A DNA stretch of 47,319 nt, taken from positions 1-47,319 of the forward strand of contig CAYRIH010000002.1 of assembly GCA_964424375.1 (NCBI GenBank), in the 5' to 3' direction. Shown in pieces: positions 20,933 to 34,280 of this stretch. Position numbers and translations under genes: made by a program. How positions within the stretch are numbered: the stretch's first letter is position 1; the number at the start of each line of letters is the position of its first letter. The stretch is from an uncultured Candidatus Saccharibacteria bacterium (lineage in GTDB: Bacteria > Patescibacteriota > Kazan-3B-28 > UBA10110). The notes under the pieces are model-generated. The model did no database searches. It was not told the origin of the DNA and worked only from the letters and a program-made list of their open reading frames with translations.

Positions 20933-21715
20933 GTGTCAGAGAAAAAGAAAGTAATTAAGTCTGCTAGTCAATCTAAAACTAAATCGGTTGCTAAAAAGCA
21001 GCGCAAAATTTCACCAGTTAAAAAACTTGGTAGGGGTAAACGATATATTGAATCAGCTAAGTTGGTGGATAAATCTAAGTTATACGATTTGGATACAGCT
21101 ATAGATTTATTAATTAAAACATCGACAACTAAGTTTGATGCAGCGGCCGAAACGCATATTCAAACTGGTTTAGATCCCAAGCAGGCTGAACAAAACATTA
21201 GGGGTACGGTACTATTGCCAGCTGGGTCTGGCAAAAGTATCAAAATCTTAGTCTTTGCTGAAGGGGAAGAAGCCACAGCTGCCAAAAAGGCAGGAGCAGA
21301 TTTTATTGGCAGTGATGATTTGTTAGATAAAATTAATTCTGGTTGGTTGGGTTTTGATGTAGCTATTTCTACACCAGATTTAATGGCCAAGGTTGGTAAA
21401 TTAGGTAAAACTTTAGGCACCAAAGGCCTGATGCCTAATCCTAAAAGTGGAACTGTGACTAAAGATGCAGCCAAGGCAGTGGAAGAATTTAAAAAAGGTA
21501 AGATTGAATTTAAATTAGATAAAGAAGCTATTGTCCATATAGCATTCGGTAAAGCATCGTTGAGTAAAGTAGCGATACATAATAATTTTAAAGTTTTATA
21601 CAAAGCTATTCTAAATGCTAAACCAGCTTCTATTAAAGGAACATATATTAAGAAGATTTCATTATCTTCTAGTATGGGACCAGGGGTTAAACTAGATTTA
21701 AATTCTTTAGAATAG
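20933..21715 (+). CDS. rplA: 50S ribosomal protein L1 with Lys-rich N-terminal extension
   Basis: GTG start behind GAGGAGG; the canonical L1 N-terminus (GRGKRYIESAKLVDKSKLYDLDTAIDLL) begins about 32 aa in. Confidence 0.9.
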   Translation: MSEKKKVIKSASQSKTKSVAKKQRKISPVKKLGRGKRYIESAKLVDKSKLYDLDTAIDLLIKTSTTKFDAAAETHIQTGLDPKQAEQNIRGTVLLPAGSGKSIKILVFAEGEEATAAKKAGADFIGSDDLLDKINSGWLGFDVAISTPDLMAKVGKLGKTLGTKGLMPNPKSGTVTKDAAKAVEEFKKGKIEFKLDKEAIVHIAFGKASLSKVAIHNNFKVLYKAILNAKPASIKGTYIKKISLSSSMGPGVKLDLNSLE

Positions 21716-21716
21716 G

Positions 21717-22154
21717 ATGAAGGTTAAAATTAAACGAATTGATAAAACATTGCCGTTACCGACCTACAAAACATCTGGTGCCGTAGCGTTCGATTTAATT
21801 TTACGAGAAAGCGCAACAATACAGCCAGGGGAATCTATAAGGATACCTTGTAATGTCATTGTCGAAATACCAGAGGGCTATATGTTGCATGTTGTTCCAC
21901 GTAGCAGTTTCCCCTTTAAAAAACCAGGGCTTATTCAGGGCAACCATGCTGGTGTGATTGATCAGGATTATTGTGGACCTAATGACGAATTAATGTTTCC
22001 AGTTTATAACACCACAGATAAGCCAATTAGTTTAGAACGAGGTGAAGCATATTGTCAGGCAGTTTTTGTAAAAATTAGTAAAGCAGAATTCGAAGAAGTA
22101 AGTGAAATGTCTACCCCTGATCGGGATGGTTTTGGGAGTACTGATGAAAGGTAA
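21717..22154 (+). CDS. dut: dUTP diphosphatase
   Basis: Trimeric dUTPase motifs AVAFDL, PRSS, GVIDQDYCG, GFGSTD. Confidence 0.85.
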   Translation: MKVKIKRIDKTLPLPTYKTSGAVAFDLILRESATIQPGESIRIPCNVIVEIPEGYMLHVVPRSSFPFKKPGLIQGNHAGVIDQDYCGPNDELMFPVYNTTDKPISLERGEAYCQAVFVKISKAEFEEVSEMSTPDRDGFGSTDER

Positions 22155-22746
22155 ATTTATTGTTTTTGAAGGAGTAGATGGATCAGGCCAAAATACTCAG
22201 GCGGAACTTTTAGTAAGATATTTAAAGACAAAAGGTTTTGATGTTTTAGAAACCTATGAGCCAACAGATAGTTATATTGGTGCTAGAATTCGTAAGATTT
22301 TAAGTGGCGATGTAACAAGTTCTGGCGGCGCGCTTGGCTTGCAAATGTTGATGATTAGAGATAGGAAATTGCATCTTCAGGATGTTATACAGCCGCACTT
22401 AAATAAAGGAGGTGTGGTTGTATGTGTGCGGTATTTGTATTCTACTCTGGCGTACGGACAGGCTGATGGTTTGGGTTATGATAAATTGTGGCAGATGAAT
22501 AAAGATTTTCTTCTACCAGATTTAACAATATATTTAGATTTAAATCCGGAAATATCATTAGAGAGGGTAGAGAAACGGGCTCAAGAAACCGGAAAACCTT
22601 TAGATATCTTCGAAAAGAAAAGCACTCTTACAAGAGTGAGAGAAAATTTTTTGGAGTTGTTGAAAAACTTTCCAGAGATGGTTAAAGTAGATGCTTTGGG
22701 CACACCAGATGAAGTTCATCAAAGAGTATTGCGGCATCTAAATTAG
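22144..22746 (+). CDS. tmk: Thymidylate kinase
   Basis: MKGKFIVFEGVDGSGQNTQ P-loop; start moved from the track (22102) to ATG 22144, overlapping the dut stop. Confidence 0.85.
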   Translation: MKGKFIVFEGVDGSGQNTQAELLVRYLKTKGFDVLETYEPTDSYIGARIRKILSGDVTSSGGALGLQMLMIRDRKLHLQDVIQPHLNKGGVVVCVRYLYSTLAYGQADGLGYDKLWQMNKDFLLPDLTIYLDLNPEISLERVEKRAQETGKPLDIFEKKSTLTRVRENFLELLKNFPEMVKVDALGTPDEVHQRVLRHLN

Positions 22747-22760
22747 TATTCATAGTTAAC

Positions 22761-22796
22761 AAAAAACCCGGGATTAAATCCCGGGTGATTTTTTCG
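22761..22796. terminator. Bidirectional intrinsic terminator between convergent tmk and the thyX-like gene
   Basis: AAAAAA ACCCGGGAT TAA ATCCCGGGT GATTTTTT. Confidence 0.8.
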
Positions 22797-22804
22797 TTGT
22801 AAAT

Positions 22805-24187
22805 CTAAACCAATCTTACAGGGAAGAACTGATCCAGGGGAATTGTTGAATCGCGGCCACAATAACGTTTGCCTTCAGCACATTGTCCACATTGGTAACA
22901 TTTTGGAGACAACATGTTTAAAAGTTGAACTGAGTGTTGTCCAGAGCTTTTTGGGAGTATGGCTTCACGCAATAGTCGAGATAGGTTATAAATCTCTTCC
23001 TGTGTGCACCAACACAGTCTTTTATCTTGCTCGTGAAGTACGGTGTTTAAAGTGCCCTTTTTGATGTAACGTACCATGGCTCCGTAAGGTGATAAAAATC
23101 TAAACAGTGCAGGGTGCACGTTTGTAGAAAGGGTTAACCACATTTCGGCGATTTGCATTAACTCCTTATTGATATTTAATTCTCTAACAATAGGAGGGTG
23201 GTAAAATCCGCCAGTAAAATCGAACGGGCCCCTGTTAATTCGCCGGTGGCGCTGATCCTGCCCCATGGTAGCTACCGATATTTCAATTTGGGTTTTGATA
23301 TCGATAACGTTATTAGGCATAAATTTGGGGTTAAAGTGTAATGTGTCTACCGGATGGGTATCGGTAGGTTCTGGATAAACAGCACTGTCTAAATTATCTA
23401 TCGATAATAATTTTAGCTTAGGGCTGTTTTCTAAATTACAGGCGCTAGGGACAGTGATGGTAAGATCGAGAGGACTAATATCAGTTGATGATTTTTCCTC
23501 TCTTTTAAACATATACTGTAATTCTGGATAAAGTTTCAGCACTTCCTGGGCCATTAAATCTGTTACATAGTACATAGGTGAATCCCAGGCTGATCGGTAC
23601 AGGGCTACCAGAGCTGATAAGTTAACAGTATAAGTCAAAGCGGTTGGGAATATTGTTGGGATTAATACTCGAAGTTGTTCTTGTCCAAACTTACGAGCAT
23701 TTTGTTTTATATACTTAGTTGTGGCTTTGGGTCGTTCTTTGGCAATAAACTTTTCAGCTACTTTAGTAGCAGGGTCGATGTTCTGGTTAAACAACTCCTG
23801 GCTAAAATTGATATAGTTTTCAATCCCCCTGATAGTTTTAGTATCAGTTTGAGGAAAGAAATATTTAACATAATCAATAATGCCCTGGGCAATATCTGGG
23901 TCGGAGAACATACCAAAACAGAATCTTCCCGAGCGCTGACTAGTAGTGTAAAAGGGTGAGTTTAGGTGTAATCCAAAAGTTACATTACTAATGGCTACAC
24001 CTTCGATAAAGAATGTAAATTCAGAACTTTGTAATACTGTATGATGTACAGTATTGAATATACTTTTTTCGATGTTAATCGATTTGCCCCATATGGGTTC
24101 CGAATCATCGTAACAGGTACGGGCAGAAAAGGACATTAGAGATGGAGCATCCTTATTAGTGTGACTAATAAGTTTTGCGGTTATCAT
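22805..24187 (-). CDS. Elongated ThyX-like (flavin-dependent thymidylate synthase-like) protein with C-terminal Cys cluster
   Basis: HHTVLQSSEFTFFIEGVAISNVTFGLH...TSQRSGRF resembles the ThyX core (H..VLEH..FTF.I.G.SR....L.RHR..S....SQRY). An RHR triplet occurs only later (QDQRHRRINRG). Convergent with dut-tmk. Confidence 0.5.
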   Translation of the reverse strand: MITAKLISHTNKDAPSLMSFSARTCYDDSEPIWGKSINIEKSIFNTVHHTVLQSSEFTFFIEGVAISNVTFGLHLNSPFYTTSQRSGRFCFGMFSDPDIAQGIIDYVKYFFPQTDTKTIRGIENYINFSQELFNQNIDPATKVAEKFIAKERPKATTKYIKQNARKFGQEQLRVLIPTIFPTALTYTVNLSALVALYRSAWDSPMYYVTDLMAQEVLKLYPELQYMFKREEKSSTDISPLDLTITVPSACNLENSPKLKLLSIDNLDSAVYPEPTDTHPVDTLHFNPKFMPNNVIDIKTQIEISVATMGQDQRHRRINRGPFDFTGGFYHPPIVRELNINKELMQIAEMWLTLSTNVHPALFRFLSPYGAMVRYIKKGTLNTVLHEQDKRLCWCTQEEIYNLSRLLREAILPKSSGQHSVQLLNMLSPKCYQCGQCAEGKRYCGRDSTIPLDQFFPVRLV

Positions 24188-24373
24188 GATTAAGAAACCT
24201 CCAATTGTTTTCTAGTTTTTATATCAAAGTACATTGATTTTTGATTTTTCATTATACACTAATATTTATTGACTTTTAAAAACAGTTTTACTAGAATGCT
24301 TGTATAACCTTTATAGACAGTAGGTATATCAATAAATCCTACCGAGAAGGCTCACAATTTTGTTTTAATTGTG

Positions 24374-24401
24374 TTTCTGATTGGTAGATCAGAAATTTTT
24401 T
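24374..24401 (+). promoter_or_regulatory. Terminator-like hairpin in the rplJ leader (candidate L10/L12 attenuator)
   Basis: TTTCTGAT TGGTAG ATCAGAAA followed by TTTTTT, ending 6 nt before the rplJ ATG; further hairpins upstream (CACAATT/AATTGTG, GTAGG/CCTAC). Confidence 0.4.
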
Positions 24402-24406
24402 ATATC

Positions 24407-24931
24407 ATGCCCAAGACTAAAGCACAAAAAGCAGAGCAAATTAAACAGCTTACGGATAAACTGCAGACTAACCCAACTGTGGTTATAACTGAGTTTACTG
24501 GTTTAACTATGGAAGATTTAACTGATTTTCGAAAAGTAGCACGGGAAAAAGGAGTGACTTTTCAGATTGTTAAAAATACTTTACTCACTAAGGCGGCTGA
24601 AAAAGCTGGGATAAAAGGTCTAGATGTTGATAAAGTAGCTCGTCAGTTAGCCATATCTACTGGTGATGCTGATGAAGCAACTATGTCTAAATTGGTATAT
24701 GAATTTGTAAAAAGTAGTGCCGAAAAAGTAAAAATATACTCAGGTATCTTAGAGAGCAAAATTGTGCCCGTCGAAACTATTATTCAATTAGCTCAATTGC
24801 CTAGCAGGGAAGAGTTATTAACTAGAGTAGTTGGCAGTATCAGTGCTCCAGCTAGAGGGTTTGTTAGAGTGTTAAATGGTCCATTACAAGGATTTTATAA
24901 TATTGTTAAAGCTTTAAGTGAAACTAAATAA
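24407..24931 (+). CDS. rplJ: 50S ribosomal protein L10
   Basis: [19 protein letters not shown]...[19 protein letters not shown]; start moved from the track GTG 24371 to ATG 24407. Confidence 0.9.
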
Positions 24932-24975: not shown

Positions 24976-26690
<1,715 letters not shown>

Positions 26691-26694
26691 TGTT

Positions 26695-26946
26695 ATGGAC
26701 AAATAGATAGTTTCTGATATGTTGTATCTGGCATGTTTTAGGCTTTGGAAGCTAAAAACATGACTACTTTGACAAAGGAGTAATAAAAATGCGCAGGAAG
26801 CCATTAATTATCTTGCTGTTAGTAATGCTTGGTTTGGCTTTTGTCATAACCATTGCTGGTTGTGGGAAAATCAAAAAGATAATCCAGAGTTCAGGTCCAT
26901 CTGGACCTGGTCAGCATATTGATATTGGGTATGGCTGGGATCAGGG
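26695..26946 (+). repeat. 252-nt direct repeat, copy 1 (5' UTR + signal peptide + first ~52 codons of the lipoprotein gene)
   Basis: Ungapped hand alignment to 28229..28480 gives 8 mismatches; similarity collapses right after GGCTGGGATCAGGG. Confidence 0.9.
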
Positions 26947-27334
26947 TCTTGGACCTGGGTGGCAATCGCGACGATCAGACCTCTGTATTATAGGGGGGAA
27001 TATATATGGGGTTTCACCTGGGGAGATAGATCCTTATATAATTCAGCTTGGTTCAGATACGATTCATTATCGTTACAATCTATCTCCAAGCGAGAAGCAA
27101 ATGAGTGGGCTAGCGGCCTTTGCTACGGATTTTATGGGACTGTCTGAACTTGAAGTCATGAGCACTAGAGGCTATGAAGGAAACTATGAGGAAGGAAGTA
27201 GATTAGGAAGCTCAATAGACAAGTCTGATTATGAGAGGGGTTATATCCTGTTTGAGTTTCAAGTTCCTTTCTCATCAACGGGTCTCTATGTTTTTGAAGG
27301 TATGGAAGACAATTTCCTTATCCTTAGGCAGTGA
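26789..27334 (+). CDS. Lipoprotein, paralog A (181 aa)
   Basis: Signal peptide MRRKPLIILLLVMLGLAFVITIAGC with lipobox IAGC; AAGGAG SD 8 nt upstream. Confidence 0.8.
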   Translation: MRRKPLIILLLVMLGLAFVITIAGCGKIKKIIQSSGPSGPGQHIDIGYGWDQGLGPGWQSRRSDLCIIGGNIYGVSPGEIDPYIIQLGSDTIHYRYNLSPSEKQMSGLAAFATDFMGLSELEVMSTRGYEGNYEEGSRLGSSIDKSDYERGYILFEFQVPFSSTGLYVFEGMEDNFLILRQ

Positions 27335-27478
27335 GATAATAAAAAGATTGATTGACTTGCTCGAGGAAGATATTCTTGCTGCTGAATCTATATGAGGAAC
27401 TAGGGTTGGCGCTGATTTTTTAGCACGTCTGTTTATAGGCGTTTGATATAAATGTTAGAGAACCTTTGAAGAATCCTT

Positions 27479-27540
27479 CATGACTACTTTGATAAAGGAA
27501 GTGATGCGATTCATTCTGTTGTTAGTGCTAATTATTACGC
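27479..27540 (+). pseudogene. Degenerate third copy of the lipoprotein 5' module (UTR motif + truncated signal-peptide-like start)
   Basis: CATGACTACTTTGATAAAGGAAG then ATGCGATTCATTCTGTTGTTAGTGCTAATT, versus CATGACTACTTTGACAAAGGAG...ATGCGCAGGAAGCCATTAATTATCTTGCTGTTAGTAATGCTT in the intact copies. Confidence 0.4.
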
Positions 27541-27574
27541 AGAGGTATGTAATAAATTTAAAAGGAGGTCTTCC

Positions 27575-28075
27575 ATGGGAGACAATGATAATGGGATTGA
27601 TCCTAAAGTGGAAGATGGGGATAAACAGCTTACAGATAAAGAGCTGGAAGAGCTGAGGGTACGGGAGCGCTTTGGTCACATTTTGCTAAGTATTCGCAAA
27701 ATACTAGGGATGAGTATTGAGGAGCTTGCCCGTGCAGCAGAAATGGATGCAGGGTATATTTCTCGACTCGAGAACGGCCATAGAAGTCCACCCTCGGCCA
27801 AGATTCTCCGGCGACTTGCTGATGTACTAAAGGTAAATGTAATGCTCTTTTTCATGGCAGCAGATTATCTAAGAATTGATGAACGAGGTAATTCGGTTAC
27901 TAAAGAGCTTCTTGATCTTCGTGTCGTGGCTGAGGTTACTGGTACTCATCCTGTTGTGGATGTGAATTCAGAGTTTGCTGAGGTTATTGCTTTATTGAAA
28001 GAGGGAATTGAATCTTTAAAAGATATCAAGTTCCTCTTGACGACGGCGGTGCGGGAGAACAAGGAGAAGAATTAA
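27575..28075 (+). CDS. XRE-family helix-turn-helix transcriptional regulator (166 aa)
   Basis: HTH LGMSIEELARAAEMDAGYISRLENGHRSPSAKILRRLADVL; AAAGGAGG SD upstream. Confidence 0.8.
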   Translation: MGDNDNGIDPKVEDGDKQLTDKELEELRVRERFGHILLSIRKILGMSIEELARAAEMDAGYISRLENGHRSPPSAKILRRLADVLKVNVMLFFMAADYLRIDERGNSVTKELLDLRVVAEVTGTHPVVDVNSEFAEVIALLKEGIESLKDIKFLLTTAVRENKEKN

Positions 28076-28090
28076 GTAAAGTTTGGAGGT

Positions 28091-28120
28091 AACCGACCAC
28101 TTCTGTGGTCGGTTTTTTTT
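28091..28120 (+). terminator. Intrinsic terminator after the XRE gene
   Basis: AACCGACCAC TTCT GTGGTCGGTT followed by TTTTTT. Confidence 0.85.
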
Positions 28121-28228
28121 ATCTTATTTACTGAATAAACTGCATATACTCTAGAGCGTATATAGTAGGGAGTGGTTGTAATTGGAGGGGTTATCTTTAG
28201 TAGTTTTAGTAATGGATTAGTAATAGGA

Positions 28229-28480
28229 ATGGACAAATAAATAGTTTCTGATATGTTGTATCTGGCATGTTTTAGGCTTTGGAAGCTAAAAACATGACTA
28301 CTTTGACAAAGGAGTAATAAAAATGCGCAGGAAGCCATTAGTTATCTTGCTGTTAGTAATGCTTGGTTTGGCTTTTGTCGTAACCATTGCTGGTTGTGGG
28401 AAAATCAAAAAGATAATCCAGAGTTCGGGTCCGTCTGGACCTGGTCAGCATATTGACATTGGATACGGCTGGGATCAGGG
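28229..28480 (+). repeat. 252-nt direct repeat, copy 2
   Basis: See 26695..26946; offset 1534 nt. Confidence 0.9.
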
Positions 28481-28892
28481 GATAGATGGTGGTTGGCGAG
28501 AAGATTTAGCTACGTCTATCAATTCGGGTCTTGCTTTAGATAAGGCCAATGTAGATCCTTATATAAATCAGATGACAGCCGGTAACAAGATTCTGTATCA
28601 ATATAATTTTTCTCCTGTAGAACAGGAGCAAAAGGGTCTTATCGGTTTGGCAATGAAGTCATCAATCAAAATAATTGAATTAAAATTACCTACGATAGAC
28701 ATCCCGGTTTATGTTTATGATAGGACTATGGGTGTTTTTGCCATACCTATGCTGGGTGTGGTTTGCACAGACAAGTCAGATCTCGATGCAGGGTTAGGTT
28801 ATGCTCGCTTTGAGTACGAGATACCTGATTCTGCCGGCGATTTACTTGTCTTCGTTGCGGAAGATGCATTGGTGCTATCTAGATCTAGATAA
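28323..28892 (+). CDS. Lipoprotein, paralog B (189 aa)
   Basis: The first ~52 aa match paralog A with two substitutions (I7V, I20V). The remainder is only weakly similar (DPYI.Q...Y.YN.SP.E....GL; final ...F.......L.VF...). Confidence 0.8.
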   Translation: MRRKPLVILLLVMLGLAFVVTIAGCGKIKKIIQSSGPSGPGQHIDIGYGWDQGIDGGWREDLATSINSGLALDKANVDPYINQMTAGNKILYQYNFSPVEQEQKGLIGLAMKSSIKIIELKLPTIDIPVYVYDRTMGVFAIPMLGVVCTDKSDLDAGLGYARFEYEIPDSAGDLLVFVAEDALVLSRSR

Positions 28893-29016
28893 CCAAATAG
28901 TAAATTTTAAAATCTCCCAAAGATTTAACATCTGAGGGAGTTTTTTTAAAAAAGAAAAAGCGATAGTCAGGTTTGTATTAGGGTACTAATTTTTGGCTGT
29001 TAGGAGCAATTTTTTA

Positions 29017-29856
29017 TTAGATGTTGACTATCATAGATGATAGTAAATTAGTTCCACTTATCTGAGCTCCAATTATAGTTGTACCTGATTGAATGGCAGT
29101 AACTATGCCGTTTTGGTTAACGCTAGCCACATTAGGATTAGTAGAAGTCCATTCCAATGATACATTTGATCTGGAAATGATTTTTTTATTTTGATCCTGG
29201 ATTAGAGGAATAGGGGAGAAATATGACCCAATATGCATTTTGTATTGAAAAGGTATGAGATTTAAGGTAGCTGGTGTTTGAGTGAATAAAATAGAGTTTA
29301 TTACATCTAAATAACTGGTTTTATCTAGGCCAGTTGTGTTAATTTCCCAAAGTTGAGAATTAGTATCAAACTTAATTGTCAGATTGTTATTAGCTACAGT
29401 AACCCATCCACCTTTAGTGGTTTGGTAGCTACCTATTTGATAAATAGTATCATTAATAGTTAAAGTGCCAATGGCTGTGATATATAACCTCCAAATACCA
29501 TTGGTAATCCCATTGATAGTTACCTGAGTGGGGGCAGTGGCCATTAAACTAGTTCCGAAGTTAGCTATACTTCTGGGGTTAGTCCAGGTTTCCATAGAAC
29601 TATTAACACCTTTGATGTCATAACCGAAGTTGATTTTTGATTTTCCGTTAAATATAGAAATACCCTGAGCTTCATTGCTAGATAGAGATTCTATGGCTGA
29701 AGTAGTTATATAAGTGTTAGCTTGCTGATCAATGGGAGCTGCTTGGGATTGACTAAAAACAAACACTAAAACTACAGCCACAGCCATTACAGCTAAAAGC
29801 TCTCTTTCTAAAAGATTAAGACATTGTTTTGCTAGGTGATTTAAAGATTTTTTCAT
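29017..29856 (-). CDS. Secreted protein with C-terminal bacterial Ig-like (Big_2) domain
   Basis: LEWTSTNPNVASVNQNGIVTAIQSGTTIIGAQISG is Big_2-like; signal-like N-terminus. Start moved from the track GTG 29901 (inside a GC-rich hairpin) to ATG 29856; no clear SD. Confidence 0.65.
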   Translation of the reverse strand: MKKSLNHLAKQCLNLLERELLAVMAVAVVLVFVFSQSQAAPIDQQANTYITTSAIESLSSNEAQGISIFNGKSKINFGYDIKGVNSSMETWTNPRSIANFGTSLMATAPTQVTINGITNGIWRLYITAIGTLTINDTIYQIGSYQTTKGGWVTVANNNLTIKFDTNSQLWEINTTGLDKTSYLDVINSILFTQTPATLNLIPFQYKMHIGSYFSPIPLIQDQNKKIISRSNVSLEWTSTNPNVASVNQNGIVTAIQSGTTIIGAQISGTNLLSSMIVNI

Positions 29857-29871
29857 TTGTTTTTGTTTTTT

Positions 29872-29909
29872 GCCTGCCCGCGGGCTGTGCTCGCGAAGCA
29901 CGGCCAGGG
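29872..29909. repeat. GC-rich palindromic element (GCCCGCGGGC at 29876-29885 and GTGCT CGCGA AGCAC at 29887-29901) in an AT-rich spacer
   Basis: Read directly; strongly atypical composition for this genome. Confidence 0.6.
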
Positions 29910-29984: not shown

Positions 29985-30542
29985 TTAATCAAGCTGGTGT
30001 TGAGATAGTAAGGTATATATTGGTCCATGGGAAGTGAGTTGGCTGGCCATCAAGTCAATTGATTCAATTTTGTTAGTTATTTGTTCATTATTTAATTTGT
30101 AACAGCTTTGCAGTTGAGTGTTTTGAATATTAGATAAGGGCGATTTGATTCGGGCCAGTGTAATATGTGAAGAAAACGACTTGGCATCTAAATTAGTTAT
30201 AATCTTTTCTAATTCTTGTCTAATGTGAAGCTGTATCTTAGGAAGTTTAGGAGAGTTAACGCCAATCCAAATAATTCTGGGATTTTGAAGATTGGGGAAG
30301 GATCTAACTTGACCAAGGGTAATGTGAAAAGGTTTGTAGAGGGGAGCTATTTTATTGAGAGTATTTTGTATTTCGGGGATAATGTCTTCATCAACATTTC
30401 CTATAAACTGTAAAGTTAGATGCAGATTATCTATTTTTGTTTTTTTAATATCTTTATCATTAGGCAAACAGTTTAAAACTTGCCCAATTTTTAATTTGGT
30501 TTCATTACTAAGATTTAATGCTATAAATAGTCGTTTTTTCAT
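29985..30542 (-). CDS. thpR: RNA 2',3'-cyclic phosphodiesterase / 2'-5' RNA ligase family (2H)
   Basis: Two HxT motifs: HLTLQFIG and HITLARI. Confidence 0.8.
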   Translation of the reverse strand: MKKRLFIALNLSNETKLKIGQVLNCLPNDKDIKKTKIDNLHLTLQFIGNVDEDIIPEIQNTLNKIAPLYKPFHITLGQVRSFPNLQNPRIIWIGVNSPKLPKIQLHIRQELEKIITNLDAKSFSSHITLARIKSPLSNIQNTQLQSCYKLNNEQITNKIESIDLMASQLTSHGPIYTLLSQHQLD

Positions 30543-30740
30543 AGAAGTAGAAAAGATGTTTATGCCATATATATAAAATGTAACAGAAGCACGAATAATT
30601 TATATATGTTAATTAAATAAAAAGACAGTCATAATGAGTTCTAGAAAATTGATTTCACAGATTAAAGCAAAAAAGATGACACAGTATCTGTAATAATATA
30701 AGCTAATAAAGTAAAGTATCCCTAAAAATTGTTATTATAG

Positions 30741-32975: not shown

Positions 32976-34280
32976 ATGTCTGCTAAACAGAAAATTCAAA
33001 TTCCCAGGGGACTAAAAGATGTTCTTCCCGACGAACAAAAGTATTGGTTTTGGCTGGAAAACAATTTTTATAGTGTTGCTTCTACAGCTGGATTTGAGCG
33101 TATAATTTTGCCAACTTTTGAATCAACTAACCTATTTAAACGTAGCGTAGGAGAATTTACAGATATTGTTAGAAAGGAAATGTATGTTATCAAAGATAAA
33201 AGCGGAAAGAGTATGTCATTGCGGCCAGAAGGTACGGCTAGTGTAGTCAGAGCATATATCGAGCATGGCATGCACACCTTGCCTCAGCCAATTAAATTGT
33301 TTTATTGGGGACCAATGTTTAGATATGACCGTCCACAAGCTGGACGTTTTAGAGAATTTTGGCAATTTGGTTTGGAGGTTTTGGGTGATTCAAATCCACT
33401 TGGGGATGCTTTGTTAATTCAAACAGTGGTTAAATATCATTCAAAGCTTGGACTAAAAGATGTAGTGGTTAAAATTAATAGTTTGGGGACTACTAAATCC
33501 CGAACTAAAATGATATCAGCTTTAACTCGTTTTTTGTCTAAACATAAAAAAGATTTATGTGCTAATTGCCAGCGAAGATTAAAAAATAATCCTTTAAGGG
33601 TACTAGATTGTAAGGTTTCTAATTGTCGATCTATAACGGAAGAAACTGGCACGGTTTTGATAGATAATTTAGATGAAGTTTCTAAGAAACGCTTTACTAA
33701 GGTTTTGGAATACTTGGATGATATGCAAATTAATTATGAGTTAGACCCTAGTTTAGTTCGGGGTTTGGATTACTATACTCACACTTTGTTTGAGGTGGTT
33801 GTCAGAGGGCATGAAGATTTAGCTATTGGTGGCGGAGGTAGATATGATGGTTTAGTTAAACAATTGGGTGGGCCGGATGTTTCATGTATTGGATATGCTG
33901 GTGGAGTTGAAAGAACTATTAATGCATTGAAAAAACAGGCAGTTGATGTACCAAATATGGTTCAATCTGATGTGTTTGTTATACAGCTTAGTGCAAAGGC
34001 TAAGATTAAGTCTATAAAAGTTATTGATGATTTGGATCAAGTTGGTCTTCGAGTATCAAGTTCTATGGGCAGTATCCAAGCTCAATTAAGAGAGGCTAAC
34101 AAAATGAATACTCCATTGGCAATTATTATTGGTGAGCAAGAAGTATATGATAAGAATGTAATTTTGAGAGATATGGAAGATCGTTCCCAGGAGATAGTAT
34201 TAGATCGTAATTTAGTTAAAAAGGTTATTAAAAAATTAGAGGAAAAAGGTATAAATGTGAAAATATTGTCTCATGATTGA
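32976..34280 (+). CDS. hisS: Histidyl-tRNA synthetase
   Basis: Class II motifs: LRPEGTASVVRAY, FRYDRPQAGRFREFWQ, RGLDYYT, GGGRYDGL; anticodon-binding C-terminus. Confidence 0.9.
   Translation: MSAKQKIQIPRGLKDVLPDEQKYWFWLENNFYSVASTAGFERIILPTFESTNLFKRSVGEFTDIVRKEMYVIKDKSGKSMSLRPEGTASVVRAYIEHGMHTLPQPIKLFYWGPMFRYDRPQAGRFREFWQFGLEVLGDSNPLGDALLIQTVVKYHSKLGLKDVVVKINSLGTTKSRTKMISALTRFLSKHKKDLCANCQRRLKNNPLRVLDCKVSNCRSITEETGTVLIDNLDEVSKKRFTKVLEYLDDMQINYELDPSLVRGLDYYTHTLFEVVVRGHEDLAIGGGGRYDGLVKQLGGPDVSCIGYAGGVERTINALKKQAVDVPNMVQSDVFVIQLSAKAKIKSIKVIDDLDQVGLRVSSSMGSIQAQLREANKMNTPLAIIIGEQEVYDKNVILRDMEDRSQEIVLDRNLVKKVIKKLEEKGINVKILSHD

Follow-up and report, generated by a model that had tools for sequence, protein, structure and literature searches.

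We analysed a 47,319-nt stretch of DNA (the window) from an uncultured Candidatus Saccharibacteria bacterium. Two genes in the window encode lipoprotein paralogs: A (26789..27334 on the + strand; 181 amino acids) and B (28323..28892 on the + strand; 189 amino acids). These genes begin with nearly identical 5' modules (copy A and copy B), their remainders are divergent, and a gene for an XRE-family regulator lies between them. This is probably best explained as a small tandem lipoprotein locus in which the 5' modules recombine and the mature domains vary. The recombination account is well supported by sequence comparisons. As for function and regulation, we infer promoter use, the function of RNA hairpins, lipidation, display at the surface, and selection that hosts or phages would exert; the same holds for any regulatory role of the XRE protein.

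The repeat has clear limits. Positions 26695..26946 and 28229..28480 (both on the + strand) are direct repeats of 252 nt, and an ungapped comparison at an offset of 1534 gave 8 mismatches (96.8% identity), at 26706, 26807, 26846, 26893, 26899, 26923, 26929, and 26932. Both edges of the block are sharp, and identity is at the background level immediately outside. The open reading frame (ORF) of tgt ends at 26690, and the first base of the block is the fifth after the stop. In order, the block contains a promoter-like site, the 5' untranslated region (5' UTR), a Shine-Dalgarno sequence (SD; AAAGGAG), the ATG (at 26789 in copy A and 28323 in copy B), a signal peptide that ends in TIAGC, and sequence through GYGWDQG, which completes the first 27 mature codons. 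An original prediction, made from the sequence alone, had given the length of the repeat, the number of mismatches, the offset, and the start 5 nt past the tgt stop, and all of these are exact in the alignment. It had also listed the 5' UTR, the SD, the TIAGC signal peptide, and the end at GYGWDQG, each of which we located. Past the block, the two proteins can still be aligned, at about 30% amino-acid identity and with the motifs DPYI, YxYNxSP, and DKSD in common, which bears out the abrupt loss of similarity that had been predicted there.

Divergence at synonymous sites changes at the same place. By Nei-Gojobori estimates, synonymous divergence (dS) between A and B is 0.155 in codons 1-52 and non-synonymous divergence (dN) is 0.017. 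In the remainder, the proportion of synonymous sites that differ (pS) is 0.746, which is saturated, and dN is 0.79. Low dS in the block and saturation beyond it argue against a recent simple duplication. The original prediction had named uniform synonymous divergence as the sign of such a duplication, and we found the reverse (dS 0.155 in the block vs. pS 0.75 beyond).

We then compared the locus to its relatives, whose DNA was obtained through exact-protein look-ups in ENA and NCBI assemblies. A 626-kb scaffold (L003/L005) matches the window at 99.89% identity over 20.5 kb, and the two do not differ in copy B. A different sample gave a 607-kb scaffold (L002) that has the order tgt, lipoprotein A, XRE, lipoprotein, Big-like, LigT, as in the window, with 95-99% identity to the window in most genes. 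A 6-kb contig (L001), at about 85% identity, has tgt, then a B-type gene, and then B's downstream flank, with no A and no XRE. Finally, a 1-kb contig (L004) carries another B-type allele. We have several pieces of evidence from these relatives that the modules recombine.

First, the window and L003 have 22 differences in 20,546 nt, which fall in four tight clusters. Nine of them lie within 26807-26869, in the signal peptide of copy A. The window's A has the B state at 8 of these 9 sites, and L003's A has the states of L001 and L004 at 6 of the 9 (26831, 26834, 26836, 26837, 26843, and 26866). The effect on the protein is GLAFV...K in the window vs. CLTFI...N in L003.

Second, L002's A is 95% identical to the window's A and has the B state at all 5 of the synonymous sites in 26893-26932, even though there is no B gene in L002. 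Third, the paralogs of one genome have derived states in common. Site 26821 is A in both of the window's paralogs and in A of L003, and G in both genes of L002 and in L001 and L004; at site 26877, the two paralogs of L002 have C and every other copy has A. Fourth, six copies yield 25 informative sites, and of the 300 pairs of these sites, 90 are incompatible by the four-gamete test. Incompatibility is lower between adjacent sites than in permutations (p=0.0074).

Fifth, a whole mature domain has been replaced. The gene in the second slot of L002 encodes a third type of mature domain (type C, protein P0005) that is 35% identical to B and 42% identical to A. It shares the module only over 26715-26876 (at 96%), a stretch that begins in the -10 region and stops four codons after the lipobox Cys. 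A deletion in L002 (junction ctgtgg/tatgttg) has removed the second arm of the XRE terminator and the -35 box, so that the -10 region now adjoins the terminator's first arm. As a result, the slot-2 gene lacks a -35 box and should be co-transcribed with XRE. Across strains, the family has 1 to 3 copies. Also, the mature parts of the B-type alleles (from the window, L001, and L004) have dS of 0.5-0.6 and dN/dS of 0.3-0.5, both above the values for tgt (dS 0.27 and dN/dS 0.09, window vs. L001). The alleles thus predate the genomes in which they occur, and the proteins evolve faster; this is consistent with the exchange of old alleles, and it is no proof of positive selection.

Together, the contrast in dS, the patch in copy A, the mosaic sites, and the swapped cassette support the claim that gene conversion or recombination maintains a common 5' module. 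The original prediction had also named a lack of recombinants in the population as refuting it. Instead there are the 9-substitution patch, P0005 in L002, a B-type gene after tgt in L001, and the mosaic block.

A second lineage has a similar arrangement. Contigs L010 and L011 encode P0009 and P0014, two proteins whose signal peptides are identical and whose bodies diverge. The two contigs share about 250 nt that are near-identical, with one mismatch (in the codon for the lipobox Cys), and then diverge abruptly. This block extends from TAGACA-17 nt-TATTGT across the leader as far as the lipobox; its sequence is unlike the window's block, but its architecture is alike, and it likewise starts at its -35-like box. 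L011 has rplL, one gene, and the flank, and L010 has three units before the same flank: the end of L011's gene, a split paralog, and P0009. (The middle unit, at 250-882 in L010, has two ORFs of 87 and 120 amino acids that result from a stop at 513, and it looks like a pseudogenised paralog inside the array.) Each unit in L010 and L011 is closed by a CTCCC/GGGAG terminator. A terminator-like hairpin of similar form lies 3' of paralog B (CTCCC..AGAT..ATCT..GGGAG and a T-run at 28914..28947 on the + strand; this was read by eye, as the loop is too long for our scan).

More distantly, a metagenome-assembled genome (L012; GCA_001772255.1) has rplL, a 315-amino-acid lipoprotein with the GYGW motif, P0012, a 1478-amino-acid protein, and a convergent Big_2 protein. 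Within 5022-11295 of L012, the GYGW motif of the 315-amino-acid lipoprotein is on a larger body, and the 1478-amino-acid protein has no Pfam match on record.

What are these lipoproteins? Both genes of the window encode the expected parts of a lipoprotein signal: an n-region (MRRK), an h-region (PLIILLLVMLGLAFVITI), and a lipobox (IAG/C, with Cys25 in A). The signal peptide reads MRRKPL(I/V)ILLLVMLGLAFV(I/V)TIAG/C and is followed by the 27 codons that end in GYGWDQG. We found no matches for the lipoproteins in Pfam, NCBIfam, PHROG, PADLOC, or the sequences in PDB, and 2.9 million viral contigs yielded no relatives. The family is rare: with paralog B as the query, only five clusters came out of 5.8 billion proteins. 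A profile detected 25 proteins at E<=1e-3 among 1.84 billion representatives, and when a profile was run against the 5.8-billion-protein index, a single further member turned up. We retrieved 17 small proteins of the family (163-202 amino acids), plus one of 361 amino acids. In the alignment, each of them has Cys at the position of the lipobox. The profile also matched a few giant repeat proteins, which were left out of this set. The Cys is invariant in all 21 aligned members, none of which has a Pfam match. The common motifs are GxHxDxGYGW, (R/N)LxPSEK, and DKSDYxxGY. Distant members are on contigs from groundwater metagenomes, and one of those contigs also has type IV secretion system (T4SS) pilin genes.

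An AlphaFold model of paralog A from 21 sequences has a predicted local distance difference test score (pLDDT) of 86.1 and a predicted template-modelling score (pTM) of 0.73. (An earlier model from 6 sequences was poor, with a pLDDT of 56.) In the model, a signal helix is followed by a tether that is disordered (residues 26-33) and then by a compact domain of ~9 strands and 2-3 helices. From the lipobox, the tether, and the variability among strains, we infer that the mature part is a membrane-tethered binding domain that is displayed externally.

These observations suggest how the locus probably works. Each gene would be a self-contained cassette with a promoter, a structured 5' UTR, a type II signal peptide, a tether, and an alpha/beta domain of ~125 residues. 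The tether would be flexible (Gly/Ser/Pro) and would end in the family motif G-x-H-x-D-x-G-Y-G-W. The two 252-nt modules, in direct orientation, may serve as homology for recombination. Gene conversion, which is non-reciprocal, would hold the signal-peptide DNA of the paralogs identical in each genome (concerted evolution). Crossing-over between modules would alter the copy number (1, 2, or 3 genes, depending on the strain). The left module and the conserved right flank would permit a whole mature-domain cassette to be swapped for the divergent allele of another strain. Purifying selection would also fix the promoter and UTR, so that the expression and export of the cassettes would be uniform and the displayed domain would vary.

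Several points weigh against this account. Only four to five related loci are in the public data, all of them in metagenome assemblies, and some of the mosaic patterns could have been produced or blurred when haplotypes were mixed in consensus sequences. The test for incompatible sites, which resembles the pairwise homoplasy index (PHI) test, is our own implementation and used 6 sequences. The window's "converted" patch does not have the B state at site 26846, and L002's slot-2 gene has the same sequence as the window's A over the patch, so import from another strain and conversion within the genome are inseparable; single conversion events can be assigned neither a donor nor a direction. The block's last ~54 nt, with 5 synonymous and 0 amino-acid changes, encode a family-wide motif. 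L012 has no DNA repeat despite its tandem lipoproteins. Synteny without the repeat in L012 implies that the family and its position are old and that homogenisation of the 5' end occurs in some lineages only. Also, when we compared the pLDDT 86 model to PDB and BFVD with Foldseek, there was no match at E<0.001 and query-normalised template-modelling scores (TM-scores) were below 0.3, so the fold does not indicate a biochemical role.

An alternative is that a module was transplanted once in front of an old paralog or an unrelated gene, that the 8 mismatches accrued since, and that exchange has not continued. Two copies at 3% divergence are compatible with one event, and the mismatches are few and unevenly placed. 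Nevertheless, the breakpoints differ: A and B are alike to 26946, but type C only to 26876. Furthermore, the patches differ between genomes that are 99.9% identical; L002's A has B-type synonymous states without a B gene in L002; each genome has derived states of its own that are common to its copies; and the same phenomenon, with a different block sequence, is found in the L010/L011 lineage. We consider a single transplant to be unlikely.

Another alternative is that purifying selection on the promoter, a regulatory RNA, and the signal peptide keeps the copies alike without any exchange between them. We think that this is quite unlikely, and the evidence differs between layers of the block. 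In the first layer (26695-26788; promoter and UTR), the copies have 1 mismatch. This layer diverges from L001 and L004 by about 6%, which is low relative to the dS of 0.27 for tgt, and its hairpins are maintained; by this comparison, its conservation across lineages is due to purifying selection, and here selection alone stands. It is also likely for the last layer (26893-26946), where all 5 mismatches are synonymous and the encoded sequence (GPSGPGQHIDIGYGWDQG) is a motif that is kept across the wider family. The middle layer (26789-26892; signal peptide and tether) has 2 mismatches, both I/V replacements and neither synonymous. In the signal-peptide codons, A and B have 0 synonymous differences in ~19 synonymous sites, but between lineages dS is 0.96 (window's B vs. 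L001) or 0.49 (window's B vs. L004), with many amino-acid changes. Because these codons diverge between lineages, the DNA is not intrinsically constrained, and its identity within a genome needs homogenisation. The derived states that the paralogs of a genome have in common, and the non-random spread of the four-gamete failures along the block, also speak against selection alone, which is largely refuted for this layer. On these comparisons, recent conversion would be needed only for the middle ~100 nt of a composite block.

Could the locus be a programmed phase or antigenic switch, in which one cassette is expressed at a time? In Mycoplasma, the vsp and vpma genes have a conserved 5' UTR and signal peptide and are switched by Xer1 inversion, and the vlp genes are switched by a poly(A) spacer (PMC2268961). 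Divergent lipoproteins that have a 5' UTR and signal peptide in common are the hallmark of such loci (PMC2268961), and the clustering of lipoprotein genes in a very small genome is another likeness to Vsp of M. bovis and Vpma of M. agalactiae. But in those systems the inversions occur around a single promoter and the mature parts have tandem repeats. Here, both modules point the same way and include a full promoter-like site, and the mature parts have no internal repeat (Tandem Repeats Finder reported only one weak 22-nt array, within gene A). The vlp genes of M. hyorhinis have a promoter each, and the 5' end, which encodes a lipoprotein signal peptide, is conserved among them. Those genes have a poly(A) tract between the -35 and -10 boxes; here, there is none, nor is there any homopolymer or short tandem repeat in the promoter spacer (AATAGATAGTTTCTGA) or the coding regions. 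There is no recombinase or integrase within +/-10 kb, according to the gene and Pfam table of L003, which is 99.9% identical. There are no promoterless silent cassettes either: the window has two family members, and protein searches tied two to the 626-kb contig. The only promoter loss that we saw is the deletion of the -35 box of L002's slot-2 gene. Overall, a programmed switch is very unlikely.

The locus might also be the remnant of a mobile element or prophage, with an XRE repressor flanked by horizontally-acquired lipoproteins of the superinfection-exclusion or defence type. Small lipoproteins do occur beside repressors in temperate phages, such as Ltp of phage TP-J34, and the XRE protein matches phage repressor families generically. 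Such an origin would account for the raised GC content. The locus is the GC-richest ~2.2 kb of the window: as the original prediction had judged by eye, its GC content (0.404) exceeds the mean for the window (0.363; standard deviation 0.019 for windows of the same size), and only 0.7% of such windows reach 0.404. The three genes of the locus are at 0.42-0.44, and tgt and the Big-like neighbour are at 0.36. This excess is modest. Against a mobile origin, the lipoproteins lack matches in PHROG and PADLOC, relatives in viral contigs, and a viral fold match; there is no integrase, att-like flank, or tRNA at the borders of the locus; and rplL and the Big_2 gene mark the same chromosomal site in a distant lineage, so the locus is an old resident. 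We regard this origin as highly improbable. Least credible is a mis-assembly of the repeat from mixed strains: all of the data are metagenome assemblies, and L001, L004, L010, and L011 end at or near the module, but the two-copy layout, with the same 8 (or 15) distinguishing sites, is present in three independent scaffolds of 607-626 kb from different samples, and 1.5 kb of unique sequence separates the copies, which have unique flanks.

We now turn from recombination to the elements within the module. The promoter-like sites, which match the sigma-70 consensus, are at 26696..26723 (TGGACA, 16 nt, and TG-n-TATGTT) and, equivalently in copy B, at 28230..28257 (both on the + strand). The -10 box is extended (with an upstream TG), and the left edge of the repeat coincides exactly with the -35-like box. 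The predicted transcription starts are near 26730 and 28264. The leader has about 65 nt before the SD and two predicted hairpins. Hairpin 1, CAUGUUUU-A-GGCUU-UGG-AAGCU-A-AAAACAUG, is at 26732..26762 in copy A and 28266..28296 in copy B (+ strand) and is predicted in every copy of the module. Its apex (GCUYUGGAAGCU) is invariant in two lineages, and its outer stem (CAUGUUUU/AAAACAUG) is replaced by AUAUC/GAUAU in L010 and L011 with complementarity retained. Three substitutions in the 3' arm, in A of L002, type C of L002, and L004, yield G-U pairs, which fits an RNA rather than a DNA structure. Hairpin 2 (UACUUU/GGAGUA; 26765..26782 and 28299..28316, + strand) is predicted to be weak and pairs with the SD; it has a counterpart in L010 and L011 at the same relative place (UAUUUU/AAAAUA). 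The excess stability of the whole UTR is modest (z=-2.0), and Rfam has no family matches within the locus. Antisense ORFs (MASCAFLLLLCQSSHVFSFQSLKHARYNISETIYLSI...) at 26607-26804 and 28072-28338 (- strand) span the start codon and UTR of each module, and one is kept in L004 (326-457, - strand). They are most likely a by-product of the conservation of the module.

A 21-nt motif, CATGACTACTTTGAYAAAGGA, lies upstream of all three genes. It occurs three times on the + strand, at 26759..26779 (CATGACTACTTTGACAAAGGA), 27479..27499 (CATGACTACTTTGATAAAGGA), and 28293..28313, compared to 0.01 expected; none of 100 shuffles reached three. A search of both strands found no inverted copies (all 3 matches are on the + strand). 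The second copy is 76 nt upstream of the XRE start codon and is conserved in L002. We considered whether this copy is part of a relic third module, given the signal-peptide-like MRFILLLV... near it, and rejected this, as similarity to the module beyond the 21-nt motif was not significant relative to shuffled sequences (p=0.25 downstream and 0.11 upstream). As far as these alignments indicate, this copy stands alone as a discrete conserved element and does not belong to a decayed module. When we scanned metagenome contigs from JGI and the species genomes of GTDB with ATGACTACTTTGAYAAAGGA, we found only single chance matches in unrelated bacteria. The ORF that begins MRFILLLVL (27504-27656, + strand; 50 codons) has its ATG after the second copy of the motif and AAAGGAAGTG, and it overlaps the start of XRE. 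Its counterpart in L002 (9343-9417) has 24 codons and ends at ATGA on the XRE start codon, so the length is not conserved. This may be an upstream ORF that is coupled to the translation of XRE.

The XRE gene itself (27575..28075, + strand) encodes 166 amino acids, with a helix-turn-helix (HTH) at residues ~30-90 and a C-terminal extension of ~75 amino acids. It matches HTH_3 (PF01381) with E = 2e-12 (47.4 bits, relative to a cut-off of 23), and it is followed by an intrinsic terminator at 28091..28114 (+ strand; a 10-bp stem with 6 GC pairs and a T-run). The original prediction of an XRE-type gene with a strong terminator between the paralogs was therefore right. The HTH, and only the HTH, resembles ClgR, SinR/SlrR, and C.BclI or other controller (C) proteins of restriction-modification systems, with scores below the cut-offs for those families. 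We found one homologue, in L002, at 81% identity. These two have 31 non-synonymous and 6 synonymous differences, for a dN/dS of 1.58, compared to 0.03-0.38 for the neighbouring genes. Positive selection on XRE was considered and rejected, as 1.58 is not significantly above 1 (p=0.22). We also looked for a recurrent association between the family and XRE genes. P0016 adjoins an HTH gene in three contigs, but that gene encodes a short HigA-like protein and is coupled with a GNAT gene, apparently as a toxin-antitoxin pair. It has no relation to the XRE gene of the window.

What would the XRE protein bind, if it acts here? Its candidate operators are the 21-nt motif, which precedes all three genes, and the inverted repeat of hairpin 1. 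However, the 21-nt motif is no less intact in L001, where no XRE gene lies between tgt and the lipoprotein gene, and the L010/L011 lineage has a structurally equivalent hairpin and no XRE gene on its two short contigs. For these reasons, an mRNA leader element of the three genes seems more likely than an XRE operator.

The locus lies downstream of rplJL/tgt and is convergent with a gene for an Ig-like surface protein. This conserved neighbour, which is outside the repeat, is predicted to be a secreted Big-like protein (29017..29901, - strand; Big_2 at 24.0 bits, cut-off 22.8) and is also present in L002, L003, and the distant L012. Between rplL and tgt, at 25549-25587, is an 18-nt inverted repeat (94% complementary, with a 3-nt loop). 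It is also kept after rplL in L011, where the lipoprotein gene follows directly without tgt, and it is probably the rplJL terminator.

The other differences from relatives are also patchy. Besides the patch in copy A, the window and L003 differ by three clusters of substitutions, at 21559-21579 (5, in rplA), 25119-25126 (2, in rplL), and 33173-33216 (6, in hisS). In each cluster, L003 agrees with the more distant L002 and only the window deviates. The clusters resemble very short tracts of imported DNA or local changes of haplotype. The comparison with L002 is a mosaic: dut-tmk-thyX-rplJ (21717-24931) are at 75-86%, and the LigT alleles (29985-30700) are 49% identical. This suggests that allele replacement is common in the population and not peculiar to the lipoprotein locus. 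L002 also has an extra NTP_transferase gene between LigT and secD. At its start, the window has the 3' end of a 16S rRNA (1-114) and, on the opposite strand, tRNA-Ala and tRNA-Ile (427-502 and 1318-1393), with no 23S gene, so the rRNA genes are unlinked. Unlinked rRNA genes are common in reduced genomes. Together with scaffold sizes of 607-626 kb and the groundwater contigs that carry distant family members, this arrangement suggests a lineage of the candidate phyla radiation (Patescibacteria). In contigs L001, L004, L010, and L011, a module or cassette lies within about 50-120 nt of a contig end, which suggests that the repeat regularly breaks short-read assemblies and that the family is perhaps under-represented in public data.

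The closest analogue that we know of for a locus with recombining modules is in Borrelia burgdorferi. Its Erp (OspE-F-related) and Elp lipoproteins have a common "upstream homology box" (UHB) and leader peptide, divergent or unrelated mature parts, separate promoters, and no DNA switch, and recombination among copies has been proposed as their origin (PMC12018966). Similarly, we found 252 nt at 96.8% identity followed by ~30% amino-acid identity, a third mature type behind the module in L002, and signs of recombination or concerted evolution (dS of 0-0.155 vs. saturation, derived sites, and p=0.007). Thus the predicted resemblance to variable surface lipoprotein families, which was that of a near-identical 5' module on divergent mature parts, is supported. 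The likeness is of architecture only: we found no homology to Erp, Elp, or Mlp, as none of the 21 members has a match in Pfam, NCBIfam, or PDB. The Borrelia genes have many copies on cp32 prophage plasmids, whereas here there are two chromosomal copies from an unrelated family in a housekeeping neighbourhood. In Borrelia, the conserved upstream DNA is bound by the dedicated regulators BpaB, EbfC, and BpuR.

In relapsing-fever Borrelia, a conserved stretch at the ribosome-binding site and signal peptide of the Vmp genes and another stretch downstream are the homology arms for cassette replacement, and silent archival cassettes are copied into one expression site at a high rate within a single cell lineage. 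The replacement of B by C in L002, between the module and the downstream flank, is similar. But here we found no archive, and the replacement is seen between strains only. Overall, the locus works like the Erp/UHB-type families, is not homologous to them, and is not a phase-variation locus. The layout of shared leader and variable body arose independently in this lineage of reduced bacteria, without switching machinery. To speak of "surface variation" for this locus would be to argue by analogy.

Full-text literature searches, some of them aimed at ultra-small genomes or the candidate phyla radiation (CPR), found no description of the family or of such a locus. This is a new example of a known evolutionary pattern that here involves an unannotated protein family, probably in a lineage whose surface biology is poorly known. 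The family of about 20-25 clusters, the confident model without a structural match, the 5' UTR with its two hairpins, and the fast-evolving HTH protein are all objects for study. A bolder proposal is that in these ultra-small genomes, which are probably of the CPR, the site downstream of rplJL/tgt is a dedicated cassette-exchange locus for a surface lipoprotein of unseen fold, with a promoter/UTR "socket" that is kept by selection, a signal peptide that is kept by conversion, and XRE, with its copy of the 21-nt leader element, co-controlled with the cassettes via an RNA mechanism (the SD-pairing hairpin) instead of acting as a classical repressor. We think this is doubtful. If it is true, then strains would swap, duplicate, or delete the displayed domain, which would be a main determinant of the host cell (or phage) with which they interact. 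In any case, genomes of ~0.6 Mb have few spare genes, so a locus with two to three paralogs, homogenised signals, and exchanged domains is a good candidate for an interface with the host, phages, or the environment.

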